Source: a virus
Reading direction: 5' to 3' (one strand)
Virus genome (UHGV): UHGV-0212837
DNA length: 39,035 bases
The position numbers and the translations under genes are program-made. The notes beneath the pieces are model-generated. The model saw only the letters and a program-made list of their open reading frames with translations. It was not told where the DNA came from and did not search any database. Below, piece by piece: positions 27,968 to 35,391 of the stretch. Positions within the stretch are counted from its first letter, which is position 1, and each line of letters opens with the position of its first letter.

Positions 27968-29146
27968 ATGGCTATAAGCGACACAAAACTGCGTACTATT
28001 TATGGTAAACCATATTCTGGCCCACAAGAAGTGGCTGATGCCGATGGGCTCAGCGTACGAATTTCACCGAAGGGGGTCATCCAGTTCCAGTACCGCTATC
28101 GCTGGCATGGCAAGCCTAATCGACTTGGGCTTGGTCGATATCCATCCCTGTCTTTGAAGGATGCCAGACAGATCACTGCTGACTTGCGAAAGCTCTATTT
28201 CTCAGGAACGGATCCACGCACCTATTTTGAAGAGAAGGTGGAGAACTCCATGACGGTCGCCCAGTGTCTCGACTACTGGTTCGACAACTACGTCTCTACA
28301 ACTCTCAGAGAAAAGACCCAGGCACTTTACCGATCAACGGTTATGAAGCGCATGCATGACGCATTTCCTAATCGTCCGGCATCTTCTATCACGGTTAAGC
28401 AATGGGTTGACCTGCTTACCGAAGAAGAAAGAGATAATCCACGCCGAGCAAGGCAGGTGCTAAGTCAACTAAGATCAGCAATAAGTTGGTGCATGCGGCG
28501 TCAGTTGATAGATAGTTGCGCAATTATGAGCATCCAACCAAGGGACTTCGGCTCCCGTGCTGAGGTAGGGGAGCGGGTACTGTCGTATCACGAACTAGCT
28601 AAGATTTGGCTTGCTATTGAAAGAAGCCGTGCGTCTACGTCAAATAAGCTCCTTCATCAGATGCTTATGCTGTGGGGGGCGAGGCTCTCAGAGCTTAGGC
28701 TGGCAACAAAGACAGAATTTGACCTGCTGGACAACGTATGGACCGTACCGAAAGAGCATAGCAAGATGGGTAATGTTATCCGCCGTCCAATCTTCGAACA
28801 AATTAAGCCTTTTCTCGAAAAGGCCATGACAACGTACAATGATGTTCTTTTCCCTGGAGAAGACATAAACAAACCGATCAGCATCGCTGCAGCCAACCGA
28901 TTCGTAAATAGAATAAGGGGAGGGATGGACATAGGTTACTGGCGAACACATGATTTCAGAAGAACGCTTGTTACACGGCTGTCCGAGATGAATGTCGAGC
29001 CCCATGTTACTGAGCGAATGCTCGGTCATGAACTTGGCGGGATAATGTCCGTGTACAATAAACACGACTGGATAGAGGCTCAGCGCAAAGCGTATGAGCT
29101 TCACGCTGATAAATTGTTCTGGCACATCAGGAGCATTTCTGATTAA
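27968..29146 (+). CDS. int: Tyrosine integrase (P4-type N-terminal arm-binding domain)
   Basis: 392 aa; catalytic region with R...H..R...Y pattern (HDFRRT, GHELGG, SVYNKH); N-terminal domain typical of P4-like integrases. Confidence 0.9.
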   Translation: MAISDTKLRTIYGKPYSGPQEVADADGLSVRISPKGVIQFQYRYRWHGKPNRLGLGRYPSLSLKDARQITADLRKLYFSGTDPRTYFEEKVENSMTVAQCLDYWFDNYVSTTLREKTQALYRSTVMKRMHDAFPNRPASSITVKQWVDLLTEEERDNPRRARQVLSQLRSAISWCMRRQLIDSCAIMSIQPRDFGSRAEVGERVLSYHELAKIWLAIERSRASTSNKLLHQMLMLWGARLSELRLATKTEFDLLDNVWTVPKEHSKMGNVIRRPIFEQIKPFLEKAMTTYNDVLFPGEDINKPISIAAANRFVNRIRGGMDIGYWRTHDFRRTLVTRLSEMNVEPHVTERMLGHELGGIMSVYNKHDWIEAQRKAYELHADKLFWHIRSISD

Positions 29147-30269: not shown

Positions 30270-30375
30270 AATCATCTCCATAAAACAAAACTCGCCGTAG
30301 CGAGTTCAGATAAAAGAAATCCCCGCGAGTGCGAGGATTGTTATTCACCTTTGACGGCAAGTTGCAGGTTAGCCA

Positions 30376-30636
30376 TTACCGCACCTCCAGTCTCCATACC
30401 GACTGACCAATCCGGCTGGCATAGGTATCTTTGGATACTGCTCCGTCTTTAGCCAGCTCCATAAGAATTTTGCGCAAATCTGCCGAACGCCATTCTTCAT
30501 CAGGAAATTCCTTCTCCATTGCCAACCGCAGATTCCAGGTTGCTATCGTGAATGGATATTCCCCGCCGAGAGCTTTCTCTTGCAGGGCAGCACGGGAACG
30601 CATCACCTGCAAAACCTTCTCTTTTACATCCATCAT
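30376..30636 (-). CDS. Hypothetical protein (86 aa)
   Basis: AGGAGG SD; ATGA overlap with upstream gene. Confidence 0.45.
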   Translation of the reverse strand: MMDVKEKVLQVMRSRAALQEKALGGEYPFTIATWNLRLAMEKEFPDEEWRSADLRKILMELAKDGAVSKDTYASRIGQSVWRLEVR

Positions 30637-31277
30637 TTTACCTCCTGCGGCGGTTCCGGTAGCGGCATCCAGTGAGTTGCCTGCTCAATACCATTACCCG
30701 GCTTAATCGTTGCTTGTCCTCGCCGAAAGGTACTTCCGGTATAGCGTGCGGAGCATATTAGCGGCTCAACCAGATCACTATCGAAATTCACCGAAATAAG
30801 TACGTTCTGATTCTTTTTCGGCATTCGCTCACTACAGCTTATCCAACCATCCGGAATTACCGGAGAGTTGCCGGGTTCTTTAATGTGCAAGCGAGGCTCA
30901 CCATCTTTTGGCTCAGGCCACTGGCGCTCCATGTTGATCTTCAATTTATCTTCCATAGCAGCGGTAATTTCAGCATCGCTGATGCCAGCACGGCGCTGTG
31001 AATCCCACAACAGAAACTGCATATCAGCCCACTCGCTAAGATCGTCTGGTTCGGCTGCGGCTTCCAGTGCCTCTTTTGAGAGGTGTTTCAGTGGACCAAT
31101 GGGGCCAACGCAGCCAAATGTGGAGTCAGACCATTTGGCATGCTCGTGGCGAATCTGTTCGCGTTCCAGTGATGCCAGTGCAATTCGTGCCAGTTCCATT
31201 TGTTCGCCACGAGTAAGCCCGTTTTCAAGCGGATTTTTAATGAATAATTCGATACGTTCTTTGGTAATAGTGGTCAT
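30633..31277 (-). CDS. Hypothetical protein, MTTIT paralog 1 (214 aa)
   Basis: N-terminus MTTITKER...ELARIALA paralogous to 31473-31985. Confidence 0.5.
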   Translation of the reverse strand: MTTITKERIELFIKNPLENGLTRGEQMELARIALASLEREQIRHEHAKWSDSTFGCVGPIGPLKHLSKEALEAAAEPDDLSEWADMQFLLWDSQRRAGISDAEITAAMEDKLKINMERQWPEPKDGEPRLHIKEPGNSPVIPDGWISCSERMPKKNQNVLISVNFDSDLVEPLICSARYTGSTFRRGQATIKPGNGIEQATHWMPLPEPPQEVK

Positions 31278-31279
31278 AG

Positions 31280-31471
31280 CTATTTCACCTTAATCTCAAC
31301 ATTTCGCAGCTTTAGCTCTACTGGCAGGTCTGACTTTCCTGTTAATGCTAATGCGAGATTTTCTGGGGTAATGAGAGCAGTTATTGCTTTCCCCATTGCC
31401 AGACGAATAATTATTCGTATTTCGCGATCGTCACATGCTCCTGGTCGAACGATTGATATTTGTCCGTCCAT
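31280..31471 (-). CDS. Hypothetical protein (63 aa)
   Basis: ATG 31471 with AAGGAG SD one nt after the upstream stop. Confidence 0.35.
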   Translation of the reverse strand: MDGQISIVRPGACDDREIRIIIRLAMGKAITALITPENLALALTGKSDLPVELKLRNVEIKVK

Positions 31472-31472
31472 C

Positions 31473-31985
31473 TCACTCTCCTTTGATGCCAATGTTTACA
31501 GCCTGGCAAGCCTCTTTGAGCACCCAGTCAACAGCGTCTTTCCATGCTCCAGTTTCGACTGGCGGATTTTCACGCTTAACCTGTTCATAGAAGCGCACTG
31601 CTTTAATCAATCCTTCTGGTGTCAGTGGCACAGGCGGGGCAGTGAATAACGCCTGAATTTCATAGTTCGGTCTGTCGTTGCAATCCTCTTTTGTCGGTAC
31701 ATATTTCCAGTCACCAACCCACGGCTCCCCCTGTGAGTCCGTAATGCCTTTTTTCACGTAGCGATATCGCCACGCTATCGGCTCTGCTTCCAGCAATGCC
31801 AGCACAATTCGTGCCAGCTCACGCACTACTTCCGGGGGAGCGTAACGGTCATTCAGGTCATCCCACAGGCGTAGCATGTTATCGCTACCAGGGTGAACAT
31901 CCTCGTTAGTTCCGGCAAGCGCACTAATAACCTCATCGGCTGCCTCAATAATTTTCAGAGCTTGTTCTCTGGTAATAGTGGTCAT
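31473..31985 (-). CDS. Hypothetical protein, MTTIT paralog 2 (170 aa)
   Basis: Shares nucleotide-identical first 5 codons and an ELARI(V/A)LA motif with paralog 1. Confidence 0.5.
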   Translation of the reverse strand: MTTITREQALKIIEAADEVISALAGTNEDVHPGSDNMLRLWDDLNDRYAPPEVVRELARIVLALLEAEPIAWRYRYVKKGITDSQGEPWVGDWKYVPTKEDCNDRPNYEIQALFTAPPVPLTPEGLIKAVRFYEQVKRENPPVETGAWKDAVDWVLKEACQAVNIGIKGE

Positions 31986-32191
31986 TTGTTAACCCTCAAA
32001 ACTTTATGCCCGGGCGCAAAAGCACGCGTTTTGTCTTTGCTTATTCGCCAGCCATCATTACGTGCCTCTTTTGCACAGCCAGCCCATGACGTACCGATAT
32101 ACTCACCGAAGTCTGGCGTTTGATATTTACCATTTGTACACTGGCGACAATCACAGTAGAGATGCATGGTGTAACTTGCGGCAATAGCCAT
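31982..32191 (-). CDS. Cys-rich small protein (69 aa)
   Basis: YCDCRQC...GC motif; track ORF N-terminal extension conflicts with the upstream gene. Confidence 0.4.
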   Translation of the reverse strand: MAIAASYTMHLYCDCRQCTNGKYQTPDFGEYIGTSWAGCAKEARNDGWRISKDKTRAFAPGHKVLRVNK

Positions 32192-32192
32192 A

Positions 32193-32384
32193 TCAGTCTC
32201 CTTTAGTGCGCAGGTGGTTTTTCCAGCGGTTTTGCGCCGCGCTGCGCTTATCTTTGATTCCCTCTCTGGCAATTCCAGAATATAAGTACAACACCACACG
32301 GCGATTGCTAACTCTCAACCACTGGCTGGGATAGCAACGTCTGTATACACGGGAAATAAGCATCTTTGCTTTACGGTTTTTCAT
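32193..32384 (-). CDS. Small basic protein B (63 aa, MKNRKAK...)
   Basis: ORF in track; start ATG overlaps stop of protein A (ATGA). Confidence 0.45.
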   Translation of the reverse strand: MKNRKAKMLISRVYRRCYPSQWLRVSNRRVVLYLYSGIAREGIKDKRSAAQNRWKNHLRTKGD

Positions 32385-32557
32385 CTTACTGCGTACCCTT
32401 TCTTCCGCCTGTTCTGTGACGCTGTAGGCTTACGCTTTGCGGCAAAAGCCACCTGACCAAATGGATGGAGTACCGCTATCTTATGGTTGCTAATAACCAG
32501 CTCCACCACACGCACAGGTCGCTGTAAAAAAAGTCGTTTTGCCTTACGGTTTTTCAT
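32381..32557 (-). CDS. Small basic protein A (58 aa, MKNRKAK...), not in track
   Basis: Hand translation MKNRKAKRLFLQRPVRVVELVISNHKIAVLHPFGQVAFAAKRKPTASQNRRKKGYAVR; ATGA overlaps at both ends. Confidence 0.4.
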   Translation of the reverse strand: MKNRKAKRLFLQRPVRVVELVISNHKIAVLHPFGQVAFAAKRKPTASQNRRKKGYAVR

Positions 32558-32730
32558 CGCTTTGCTCTCCTGCGTTTCTTTGCTGCTCGTCGTGCCGCTG
32601 CAATACCGGTATGGCGGCGCTTTGGTGCCGGGATGATGTTGTCAGCCATCAGGACATGCGGCTTTGTAATTAGCGCAGAAGCCCAAAAACGAGTCGGATA
32701 CGGTAACAAGCCGATACATGCCACACGCAT
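32554..32730 (-). CDS. Small basic protein C (58 aa, Arg/Lys/Ala-rich C-terminus), not in track
   Basis: Hand translation MRVACIGLLPYPTRFWASALITKPHVLMADNIIPAPKRRHTGIAAARRAAKKRRRAKR; start overlaps upstream stop. Confidence 0.4.
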   Translation of the reverse strand: MRVACIGLLPYPTRFWASALITKPHVLMADNIIPAPKRRHTGIAAARRAAKKRRRAKR

Positions 32731-33209
32731 TACTCACCCTCTTTGATGCGAATGCCAGCGTCAGACATCATATGCAGATACTCACCTGCATCCTGAACCC
32801 ATTGACCTCCAACCCCGTAATAGCGATGCGTAATGATGTCGATAGTTACTAACGGGTCTTGTTCGATTAACTTCCGCAGAAACTCTTCCAGGTCACCAGT
32901 GCAGTGCTTGATGACAGGAGTTTTCCCAGGATGGCGAACAACAAGAAACTGATTTCCGACTTCACGGACTTCGTTGCTTTCCAGTTCTGCTATGCGCTTC
33001 TCTGCGGCAGTAATGATGCCCTCTAGGCGTCGATTTCTACTTTCGAGTGTTTTGACTTGCTCTTTATCGGCTTCCAGCGTCTCTACCAGCACAATCACTG
33101 CCTCTGGCGTTGCTAAATCCTGCCAGTTGTCTGATGTGTCGCAGACAGAGCGCAGCATAATTTCTTCTGCTGCCGCCGCACGTAGTGCCTGATAATCAAT
33201 TTCGCTCAC
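32730..33209 (-). CDS. Hypothetical coiled-coil protein (159 aa, GTG start)
   Basis: GTG at 33209 with AAGGAGG SD 6 nt upstream and GTGA overlap with upstream stop; track ORF is a longer N-terminal extension. Confidence 0.5.
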   Translation of the reverse strand: MSEIDYQALRAAAAEEIMLRSVCDTSDNWQDLATPEAVIVLVETLEADKEQVKTLESRNRRLEGIITAAEKRIAELESNEVREVGNQFLVVRHPGKTPVIKHCTGDLEEFLRKLIEQDPLVTIDIITHRYYGVGGQWVQDAGEYLHMMSDAGIRIKEGE

Positions 33210-33658
33210 TGGCTGCCTCCTTTGCGAAGTTGGGCGGCGCGATTGTTTGCCTGCTGGAGAACCATCTTCCAACCAACAACGCAATGCATATCAGATGAAC
33301 ACTGCTGATTGGAGAACTTGACCAACATTGTTTCAGCCAAGCCAGCCAAGCTATCAAGTTCGCTGGCCCGCACTTCAGCCAGGAAGGCGTCGGTGGCCGG
33401 GGTTTTGCAGGACATTTGAATTGCCTTCTCTGTGTATAAAACACCCGTTCGATTGGCGGTATACATGATGGTGTTTACAGCATCTTGATGTGCTGATTTC
33501 ACAGCCTCAACTTCAGCAGCCAGCGCCGCGCACTTGGCCTCCGCTTCAGCAAATTTACGCACCAGATATTCAGCGTTTGTTTCGTTAACCTTTAAATCTC
33601 GTGGTATGCATTTACCTTTCAGAAATCCATCCATCTCAATTAGTGACATTAGTTTCAT
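33206..33658 (-). CDS. Hypothetical protein (150 aa)
   Basis: ATG 33658 overlapping upstream stop (ATGA). Confidence 0.45.
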
Positions 33659-33837
33659 TTCTTCCCACTCCGCCACATCGCATTCAGATATTTGTTGTCA
33701 TTAACAGAACCTAAACTATTTCTCTTAAGCAATTCCTCTCTCGATGGCATTGGCTTTACGCGTTGGCGAATAATCATTTCTGCCGGAAGAATGCCGGGAT
33801 TGTATGCAAGTCCTCTCATTGTAAATTCCTCAGTCAT
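33655..33837 (-). CDS. Hypothetical small protein (60 aa)
   Basis: Internal ATG 33837; start uncertain. Confidence 0.35.
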
Positions 33838-34123
33838 TACTGATAGCGCCATAGCGTGAGCGGTAATTACGCAGGCGCGGGTCAATTTCAGGGAAGTGGG
33901 TATATGTGGCTTTGCGGAATGGTCGGATTGATGTCTGGTAAATTCGATCGCGTTCTTCTTTCTCTGCAAGCCATATACAGTGGCGAAATTCCTTTTCCTC
34001 TTTCGTTTCCTGCGGTAGCGACATTATTCGATCGTAGTTTTTTCTGAATTTATCCAGCACCTCCGATACGGAATTGCCGGAACAGCGGCGCGCGTCGTCC
34101 GCACCATACAGAGGCGCTGGCAT
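33830..34123 (-). CDS. Hypothetical protein (97 aa)
   Basis: ATG with AAGGAT SD; follows ssb. Confidence 0.4.
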
Positions 34124-34146
34124 AATGGAATCCTTATGTTGCTACT

Positions 34147-34530
34147 TTAGAAGGGAATTGAATCGTCGTATTCAGGATGATTTTGATGATTGCTACTTTG
34201 CTGCTGTTGGCTGTTTCCTGAAGTTGCAAATCCAATCTTTGCATTCAGTAATTCAAGAGTGATTGATTGACCATTTTGCCCCTGATAAACATCAACCCTG
34301 ATGTTTTCTCCGGTAATTTCTACAATGCCACCTTCAACAAGAACACTACGGTAGTAATCCGCTTGCGCTCCCGGCTTGGCAAATACAACGGCGCTGTAGT
34401 TTGTCCATTCTTTCTTTTTTGTCTGGCGATCGTAATACTGAACGCCAGCACGGATGTTGAATCCGATATTTTCCCCGGCCTGAAACTCTCTTGCGGGCTT
34501 GTTTAGTCTTACAGTAATCGAATGTGCCAT
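34147..34530 (-). CDS. ssb: Single-stranded DNA-binding protein
   Basis: 127 aa from internal ATG 34530; acidic C-terminal tail ...DDSIPF; TAATG overlap with erf. Confidence 0.75.
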   Translation of the reverse strand: MAHSITVRLNKPAREFQAGENIGFNIRAGVQYYDRQTKKKEWTNYSAVVFAKPGAQADYYRSVLVEGGIVEITGENIRVDVYQGQNGQSITLELLNAKIGFATSGNSQQQQSSNHQNHPEYDDSIPF

Positions 34531-35135
34531 TAAGCAGCAGCTCCTTCTAATTCGTCTCGTCTGATGTTGTAAACGTCCTGCGCTTTGTGCTGCTCCGGTG
34601 TGCCTTCGAGCATCTTCCACGCTTTGGCGAACGCCTGTTTAAGCTCTTCCACGGTGTTTTTCTGCAATGCTGCGTCAGTGAATGCTTTTAGAACCTGTTC
34701 AGGTGTAGGTGATGGTTTTGATTGCTTTGCTGCTGCGTTCTGCTGATGTTTATGCTCGTCGGTATCTGCATCTTTCGCATCATCAATGCCGAACAAACCA
34801 TTGAGGCAATACTTGCGTGCATAAGAGCTTGTAGCTCCCGTAACTTGTGCAGAATCCATTCCTTTCTTGCTTTCTTCCTCTCGTGCAAGAGCGGTTGCTG
34901 TATGACTGTTTTCGCCATCAGTAATAGTTGCCGTTGCTTTCACGTAATACCGATCACCAATCAACACAACTTCATCGCTGATTGATAAAAACAGACCATT
35001 CAGTAACGGCTTAACGCCTTCAAGAATATCTTCGCAGCTTCTGTATTTATATTTGCCGAATGAGTTGTACTGATTCTTTGGCGCGTTCAGATTCTCCTGA
35101 ATAGCTGCCAGTCTTGCGTAAAATTCTTTGCTCAT
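34530..35135 (-). CDS. erf: Erf single-strand annealing recombinase (P22 Erf-like)
   Basis: MSKEFYARLAAIQENLNAPKNQYNSFGKYKYRSCEDILEG matches recalled Erf N-terminus; track start is an upstream TTG. Confidence 0.8.
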   Translation of the reverse strand: MSKEFYARLAAIQENLNAPKNQYNSFGKYKYRSCEDILEGVKPLLNGLFLSISDEVVLIGDRYYVKATATITDGENSHTATALAREEESKKGMDSAQVTGATSSYARKYCLNGLFGIDDAKDADTDEHKHQQNAAAKQSKPSPTPEQVLKAFTDAALQKNTVEELKQAFAKAWKMLEGTPEQHKAQDVYNIRRDELEGAAA

Positions 35136-35391
35136 ATGATTGTTCTCAGAATGGACACGGCCCAAGGAAATAACGCTGATTTAATACTTCGACTCGGGAC
35201 AAATTAAGGCATACCCGCATTCCTTCGCGGTCGCCATTATGGCGATACCAGAGAGCTTTCTGCGTGTACATGCGTCTCTGTAACTTGCTCTCCTTCACTG
35301 TGGTTGCAAGTGACATGAATATCTCCTTCGTTACCGATTAATTCTTTCATCTGACGAATGAATTCTTCGTCTGACCAGTTATCTGTAAAAC

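Follow-up and report, generated by a model that had tools for sequence, protein, structure and literature searches.

Three short open reading frames lie back to back on the minus strand of a phage genome (UHGV-0212837; the whole 39,035-nucleotide stretch that we analysed is called the window below), and the locus raises the question of whether all three are genes and what proteins so small and so basic could do. Our analysis gives a somewhat better than even chance to one explanation taken as a whole, namely that A, B and C are coupled coding genes in the PL operon that belong to two families, occur in shuffled arrays and encode putative nucleic-acid binders.

Layout of the triplet and its operon

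The ORFs, their junctions and the signals within them are as follows, in window coordinates:

32554-32730, minus strand: ORF A, 58 aa, pI 12.0, MRVACIG...AAARRAAKKRRRAKR; full protein MRVACIGLLPYPTRFWASALITKPHVLMADNIIPAPKRRHTGIAAARRAAKKRRRAKR
32381-32557, minus strand: ORF B, 58 aa, pI 12.0, MKNRKAKRLF...; full protein MKNRKAKRLFLQRPVRVVELVISNHKIAVLHPFGQVAFAAKRKPTASQNRRKKGYAVR
32193-32384, minus strand: ORF C, 63 aa, pI 11.4, MKNRKAKMLI...; full protein MKNRKAKMLISRVYRRCYPSQWLRVSNRRVVLYLYSGIAREGIKDKRSAAQNRWKNHLRTKGD
32728..32732, minus strand: TAATG, stop of the Ead/Ea22-like gene and start of A, from the sequence read
32554..32557, minus strand: ATGA, stop of A and start of B, from the sequence read
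32381..32384, minus strand: ATGA, stop of B and start of C, from the sequence read
32566..32571, minus strand: AGGAGA, Shine-Dalgarno-like site for B, within the codons of A's basic tail, 8 nt 5' of the ATG
32396..32402, minus strand: GAAAGGG, weak and distant Shine-Dalgarno-like site for C, within the tail of B, 11 nt 5' of the ATG
32198..32203, minus strand: AAGGAG, Shine-Dalgarno site of the DUF4014-like gene, encoded by C's last codons (..TKGD)
32354..32385 and 32527-32558: two copies of a 32-nt direct repeat, 81% identical, each spanning the initial nine codons, of C and of B respectively (MKNRKAK..)

Reading the minus strand from 31900 to 33100 gave CGATGAAAA at the A/B junction and AGATGAAAA at the B/C junction, both of them ATGA overlaps. 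This reading and the ORF list bear out the description in the earlier note of three back-to-back minus-strand ORFs of 58, 58 and 63 aa joined by such overlaps, and the placement of the triplet in the early-left accessory region also holds, with erf and abc2 on one side and a DUF550-DUF551 gene on the other. Among the three only C reaches the default ORF length cut-off of 60 aa, which may be why a single member of the triplet appeared in the earlier ORF track.

The phage has an IME10/P22-like backbone (96.5% identity to IME10 across 77% of the window's first 25 kb), and the triplet is on the leftward early (PL) strand, in the "ea" accessory region of this P22-like coliphage. Its surroundings are:

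34530-35165: erf, on one flank of the triplet
33830-34123: abc2, anti-RecBCD, on the same flank as erf
32730..33284, minus strand: Ead/Ea22-like gene, upstream neighbour of A, with a weak PF13935 match and a match to phrog_250; relatives are annotated as "ead/Ea22-like family protein"
31982..32191, minus strand: DUF4014-like gene, downstream neighbour of C, 69 aa, phrog_926; the relative in an E. coli prophage (L001) is a "DUF4014 family protein"
30633-31277: DUF550-DUF551 gene, on the other flank of the triplet
27968-29146: integrase-sized ORF, beyond the DUF550-DUF551 gene

The starts of both immediate neighbours deserve comment. The longest frame of the Ead/Ea22-like gene begins with a TTG at 33284 and overlaps the preceding gene by 79 nt (window 33206-33284); a GTG at 33209 that overlaps the stop codon of the preceding gene (GTGA; 5' sequence AAAGGAGG) is more likely to be where translation begins. 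The DUF4014-like frame is open upstream to a GTG, giving a 105-aa ORF (31982-32299) that overlaps the 3' half of C, but comparison with relatives and the strength of the AAGGAG favour the ATG at 32191, 1 nt past the stop codon of C, as the real start of a 69-aa protein. The ORF at 30633-31277 fuses a dATP/dGTP pyrophosphohydrolase domain (PF04447, formerly DUF550) with DUF551, which in relatives is also found as a separate gene.

Start-stop coupling is a property of the operon as a whole and is nothing peculiar to the triplet. ATGA overlaps are also present at 30633/30636 and 31982/31985, and from 30376 to 33284 nearly all genes have start and stop codons that abut or overlap. In the triplet each start overlaps the stop before it, so that translation by termination-reinitiation coupling is most likely, as it would be for most of the neighbouring genes. 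A scan of the minus strand from about 30340 to 35360 found no promoter-like or terminator-like sites, so that A, B and C lie well within a long early transcript, as delayed-early leftward (PL) "ea" genes of a single polycistronic message.

Two small-protein families and their arrays

B and C, which the earlier note took for tandem paralogs from their common MKNRKAK start, are indeed related: they are 39% identical over 56 aa (E = 1e-5), and both match phrog_1380, B with E = 6.5e-23 (residues 1-58 on profile positions 1-60 of 62) and C with E = 3.1e-33 (residues 1-63 on profile positions 1-62 of 62). The family alignment gave three motifs, M[KN]NRKAK, [IV]SN[RH][RK] and [ST]A[AS]QNR[WR]K, all present in B and C. 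Across 31 aligned members, B and C included, the invariant columns are R4 K5 A6, S26 N27 and Q51 N52 R53, and the core of about 30 residues among these clusters is highly variable.

A belongs to a second family, with a full-length match to phrog_13831 (E = 1.3e-41, residues 1-58 on positions 1-58 of 58). Neither BLASTP nor profile-profile comparison detected similarity between A and B or C, and the two families are unrelated. The N-terminal half of A is variable and moderately hydrophobic, and its tail is the nearly invariant Ala/Arg/Lys stretch (KRRHTGIAAARRAAKKRRRAKR) that had already been remarked upon for its composition; in 26 aligned A sequences the tail, KRR(H)TGIAAARRAAKKRRRAKR, is almost invariant. 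An imperfect 16-nt palindrome centred on TACCGGTA lies within the region coding for this tail (32596-32619) and has no evident role.

The MKNRKAK genes occur in arrays of one to three copies. An array has an optional A, zero to two "internal" members, which like B end in QNRRKKGYAVR, and one "terminal" member, usually ending in QNRWKNHLRTKG[DE], of which C is an example with the tail QNRWKNHLRTKGD; every junction inside the distinct arrays surveyed is ATGA. An internal tail contains a weak ribosome-binding site for the family member that follows it; a terminal tail contains, in its codons, the strong AAGGAG of the DUF4014-like gene. Six core types (B1, B2, C1-C4) are found in many combinations, and the 5' 21-27 nt and the 3' tails are near-alike in nucleotides among cassettes that are otherwise divergent. 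Since the same core is seen with either tail, the cassettes have been shuffled by recombination within the conserved segments that encode the ends. In our preferred explanation B and C are old tandem paralogs of the narrow enterobacterial-phage family phrog_1380, A represents phrog_13831, and divergent cores have recombined between a common 5' end and a 3' end that comes in two forms: copies with a family member after them have the first form, and the last copy has the second, in which the following gene finds its ribosome-binding site. As far as we have found, the conserved ends and relaxed cores, the position-dependent tail, the cassette shuffling and the constant A partner have not been described before.

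Several independent lines of evidence indicate that A, B and C are genuine protein-coding genes. In pairwise Nei-Gojobori comparisons of alleles from 83 related loci retrieved by homology, in which the pairs are non-independent, dN/dS in the annotated frame is 0.18 for A, 0.07 for B (only 4 alleles), 0.42 for C-type core alleles and 0.29 for C2 alleles, as against 0.6-4.1 in the other frames where dS is non-zero (A, C1, C2), with 1.0-4.1 for the off-frames of A. The constraint is unevenly distributed along the MKNRKAK genes. The first nine codons have a dN/dS of 0.03 in C and 0.00 in the second core type with normal synonymous divergence, the core has 0.62 and 0.47, respectively, which amounts to weak constraint, and the values for the C-terminal part are 0.35 and 0.17. 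The full-length PHROG matches and the B/C alignment also speak for coding, and in the RefSeq E. coli prophage L001 all three ORFs are annotated by PGAP, each as "hypothetical protein".

The window differs in nothing substantive from its relatives. That prophage (WP_001261528.1, WP_000797289.1, WP_071783682.1) is 100% identical to the window for B, 95% for A and 92% for C, and p51 of phiV10 is 98% identical to C. The prophage, phiV10 (p49/p50/p51) and 933W (L0068) share the order of an Ead/Ea22-like gene, A and one to three MKNRKAK genes with ATGA junctions, and a DUF4014 gene follows the array in most relatives, not in all. The window's own cassette set is A, a B1 core with internal tail and a C1 core with terminal tail, and closely similar combinations are found at other loci, L025-L029 among them.

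The earlier note did not recognise the family. This stands to the extent that no library assigns it a function, but the families are catalogued, as phrog_1380 and phrog_13831, and the very same protein sequences can be found in public databases (250 contigs for A, at least 1000 for B and 29 for C), where B is named "MULTISPECIES: hypothetical protein [Enterobacteriaceae]". They are ordinary "known unknown" accessory genes. A profile search of 1.84 billion representative proteins placed the MKNRKAK family in 48 clusters; all hits named by organism were from Escherichia, Salmonella, Citrobacter, Phytobacter or their phages, and many hits were nameless. The family is in 144 of 50,697 phage records, annotated as hypothetical in all of them, and the DNA module is in about a fifth of complete E. 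coli genomes (1091 of 5426), with 367 places on plasmids; P1-like phage-plasmids, for example RCS47, bear it as well. In species-representative genomes, from which the family is all but absent, a profile-based scan confirmed no member, and a DNA pattern scan gave three chance matches and one 228-nt contig identical to B. This contig comes from an Acinetobacter idrijaensis assembly and codes for a protein with the exact sequence of B, after which a second B-like gene begins. That would be a B-B tandem, an arrangement that was not seen elsewhere; the contig is probably contamination by an E. coli phage.

The family is also found outside the left operon. Two distant members lie in the early-right nin region, between the replication genes and the Q antiterminator, one in a Phytobacter diazotrophicus prophage (L164, 4001-4195) and the other, solitary and about 2 kb from a hok/gef gene, in a Citrobacter braakii prophage (L165, 4001-4189). 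The members in phiV10 are downstream of a replication gene. Judged by these positions, the MKNRKAK family is a mobile early accessory gene and no left-operon fixture. Members are also present in Escherichia phage Av-05 (BFVD A0A076G5Z6), Salmonella phage vB_SenS_Sasha and Escherichia phage vB_EcoM-Ro157c2YLVW, which do not resemble the classical lambdoid or P22-like temperate phages, and this suggests horizontal spread past that group.

Predicted structures and candidate functions

The HMM and structure-prediction searches that the earlier note had called for were run, and they gave no confident homology to a structural or regulatory family with an established role. When the triplet and its neighbours were scanned against Pfam and NCBIfam, nothing was returned for A, B or C, per-member Pfam scans at E up to 5 returned scattered noise only, such as compositional hits of A to adenovirus core protein PV, and profile searches of PDB sequences gave nothing meaningful. 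Literature searches on the peptide motifs, accessions, PHROG ids and locus names found nothing relevant. The AlphaFold2 model of C from the family alignment is of low confidence (mean pLDDT 64.6, pTM 0.30) and has a helix at 4-16, strands at 20-26, 29-34 and 39-43, and a helix at 49-60; the sole Foldseek match in BFVD is the uncharacterised Av-05 protein (45% identity, E = 2.5e-3). In the model of A (mean pLDDT 66.1) only the basic C-terminal helix, 40-57, is confident, with a block-mean pLDDT of 82-85 over residues 41-58 and low values in the remainder.

The three proteins are 6.6-7.6 kDa with a pI of 11.4-12 and 15-18 Lys plus Arg per roughly 60 residues. It is unlikely that any of them is an enzyme, a membrane protein or part of the virion. 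The most economical reading of their basic pI, of the lack of a membrane span and of the basic or polar invariant residues in the predicted terminal helices and beta-turn would be binding of RNA or DNA. We therefore propose tentatively, and with something less than even confidence, that A, B and C bind a polyanion as dispensable accessory factors, as their composition and predicted structure would allow.

Two known kinds of RNA-binding protein invite comparison. The helix, three strands and helix predicted over the approximately 60 residues of C are reminiscent of the dsRBD (PF00035). Double-stranded RNA-binding domains contact RNA through helix 1, the turn between strands 1 and 2 and the start of helix 2, and in the predicted structure the three invariant motif clusters of C would fall at these positions. 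The PF00035 profile matched no member of the family alignment (A3) at E up to 5, and the alpha-beta-beta-beta-alpha arrangement did not superpose on solved dsRBDs. Arginine-rich-motif RNA-binding peptides, such as the N proteins of lambda and P22 and Nun of HK022, are very basic and form short helices rich in Arg, Lys and Ala, and small basic proteins that bind nucleic acid can be set beside the triplet more generally. The resemblance of the triplet to N and Nun is one of composition alone, C having a Trp in its basic helix (AAQNRWKNH) and B having none; there is no homology, and the genes lie several kb into the operon, away from the promoter. An N-like antiterminator was dropped on these two grounds of operon position and absent homology.

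The triplet can also be compared with the small genes in the exo-xis/ea and nin regions of lambdoid phages. Lambda orf60a, orf61, orf63, orf73, ea8.5 and ea22 are, like the triplet, short, packed, delayed-early genes, dispensable in the laboratory and located between the recombination genes and xis/int. Stx phages have the pair of A plus an MKNRKAK gene within the exo-xis/ea region itself, right after the ea22 homologue. The lambda exo-xis/ea genes that have been studied have no sequence relationship to the triplet, and the published exo-xis study PMC4195576 covered the expression of orf60a, orf61, orf63, orf73, ea22 and ea8.5 only, not that of the triplet ORFs.

The suggestion of the earlier note that the three are anti-defence or host-takeover genes is the alternative that fares best, and we consider it unlikely. 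As effectors they would block restriction, abortive infection or CRISPR, or shut off the host, and the shuffled, fast-diverging cores would be the mark of an arms race; such a role could go together with nucleic-acid binding and concerns what the proteins do biologically, not their chemistry. The accessory location that prompted the suggestion holds. These genes occupy dispensable early regions, beside the anti-RecBCD gene abc2 and other accessory genes, their copy number varies, their paralogs are shuffled with relaxed cores (dN/dS 0.47-0.62) between strictly conserved ends, and their spread is narrow and patchy among temperate phages and phage-plasmids of a few genera. However, such a location says little, given that the majority of genes in these regions have not been assigned a role, and the core dN/dS stays below 1, so that positive selection was not detected. 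Searches of the general libraries Pfam, NCBIfam, PHROGs, PDB sequences and BFVD showed no homology or structural likeness to a characterised anti-defence or takeover protein and yielded no named match, and A, B, C and five neighbouring genes matched no family in PADLOC-DB at E up to 0.1, a resource for defence and not for anti-defence.

A more ambitious form of the nucleic-acid-binding reading would make the MKNRKAK proteins a new class of small nucleic-acid-binding effectors, with the three invariant motifs (helix 1, a beta-turn and helix 2) making up a single binding surface on a minimal alpha-beta3-alpha domain, cores diversified by shuffling of the arrayed cassettes because each paralog has its own target, and A as an obligate partner. 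The targets of the paralogs would be differing RNA, DNA or defence components of the host or of rival phages. The conserved ends, position-dependent tails, cassette shuffling and A partner, mildly interesting in themselves, are the basis of this idea, which we find quite improbable. As it stands, the locus adds three more catalogued small phage genes of little importance. The family is nevertheless a compact test case, in which ends under strict conservation and relaxed cores go together with tandem paralogs and an unvarying partner gene, and Stx-converting phages are among its carriers. If it is true that the proteins act on host nucleic acids or defences, this would have consequences for how the exo-xis region of Stx phages, which is poorly understood, is viewed.

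Protein products and nucleotide signals

The evidence that distinguishes a selected protein from a selected stretch of nucleotides bears most directly on A. It could be that A is mainly a coupling or leader ORF, for which the act of translation and not the product matters: ribosomes that end A at the ATGA would reach the first MKNRKAK start and open its ribosome-binding site, and the basic tail of A would largely be a nucleotide constraint imposed by that site and by the shared recombination junction. The AGGAGA of B does lie in the last codons of A, and conservation of the A tail could be due in part to this site. A is directly followed, at an ATGA, by an MKNRKAK-family member at 59 of 59 distinct A-tail junctions, and its N-terminal half varies a good deal among family members and is modelled with low confidence. 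Some alleles of A (P0143, P0148, P0155, P0157) have the basic tail in the +1 frame (...AAIPVLHRHDEQQRNAGEQNDEKP) and persist, still terminating just within the next gene; P0157 is on 95 contigs, and comparison with the window DNA suggests that its frameshift arose by the loss of one G in CCGGCACC (window 32590-32625). These alleles are either a pseudogene lineage or a sign that the tail is dispensable. Arrays without A are common among relatives, and together with the 1-nt deletion of the P0157 type this argues that A itself is dispensable.

On the other hand, A has the low dN/dS given above, and its variable sites are mostly at third codon positions (18, compared with 7 at first and 10 at second positions). 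Synonymous changes occur inside the tail with the amino acids unchanged, and the tail is predicted as the one well-modelled helix of the protein. The junction also has no stable RNA structure that would need to be opened (z = +0.5). We think a leader role improbable.

Another possibility is that none of the ORFs is functional and that a DNA or RNA element, such as a recombination "linker" or a structured RNA, is what is conserved, the frames being incidental. The near-alike 5' 21-27 nt and 3' tails, and the finding of the same core with either tail, do mark crossover points, and the inconsistent annotation of the region, with one gene each in the 933W and RCS47 records, could be taken in the same sense. 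This reading is very unlikely, being largely refuted by the codon-level evidence. The frames are open in dozens of divergent alleles, all of those compared, with indels in multiples of three, and dN/dS is lowest in the annotated frame. The residues of SN[RH][RK] and QNR are kept while their Arg codons switch among CGC, CGA, AGA and AGG; between divergent paralogs the Arg codons of SNRR differ as CGC-CGT, CGA-CGG, CGA-AGG or AGA-CGA, and that of QNR is AGG, AGA or CGC. That the motif residues survive such multi-nucleotide synonymous swaps argues for selection on the protein and not on the DNA. An Rfam search of the region at E up to 1 gave no match, and the RNA folds no better than shuffled sequence (z = +0.31 for the region and +0.54, -0.93 and -0.86 for the junctions).

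Small membrane-active proteins, either holin-like or Hok/Kil-like toxins with a basic cytoplasmic tail, are barely credible and were dropped on hydropathy, for the hydrophobic-ish N-terminal half and polybasic tail of A give it a superficial likeness to a small membrane protein, but its hydrophobic stretch is interrupted by Pro, Arg and Lys, matches to holin, Hok and Kil families are absent, and the maximal 19-residue Kyte-Doolittle values (1.24 for A, 0.96 for B, 0.29 for C) fall short of the roughly 1.6 that a membrane span needs by rule of thumb, so that hydropathy identifies no membrane-spanning segment in any of the three.

The coding evidence has a practical use in annotation, where support for all three frames can be set beside several reference records that miss or over-extend them. 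The module is recorded differently from one genome to another: in 933W (L003) as one over-long ORF, L0068, with A unannotated, in RCS47 (L166) by the middle gene alone, and in phiV10 (L002) with p51 as a 90-aa extended call. The "extended C" proteins of 90-96 aa (P0001-P0017) were rejected as gene-caller artefacts that read an alternative frame of the upstream cassette's tail.
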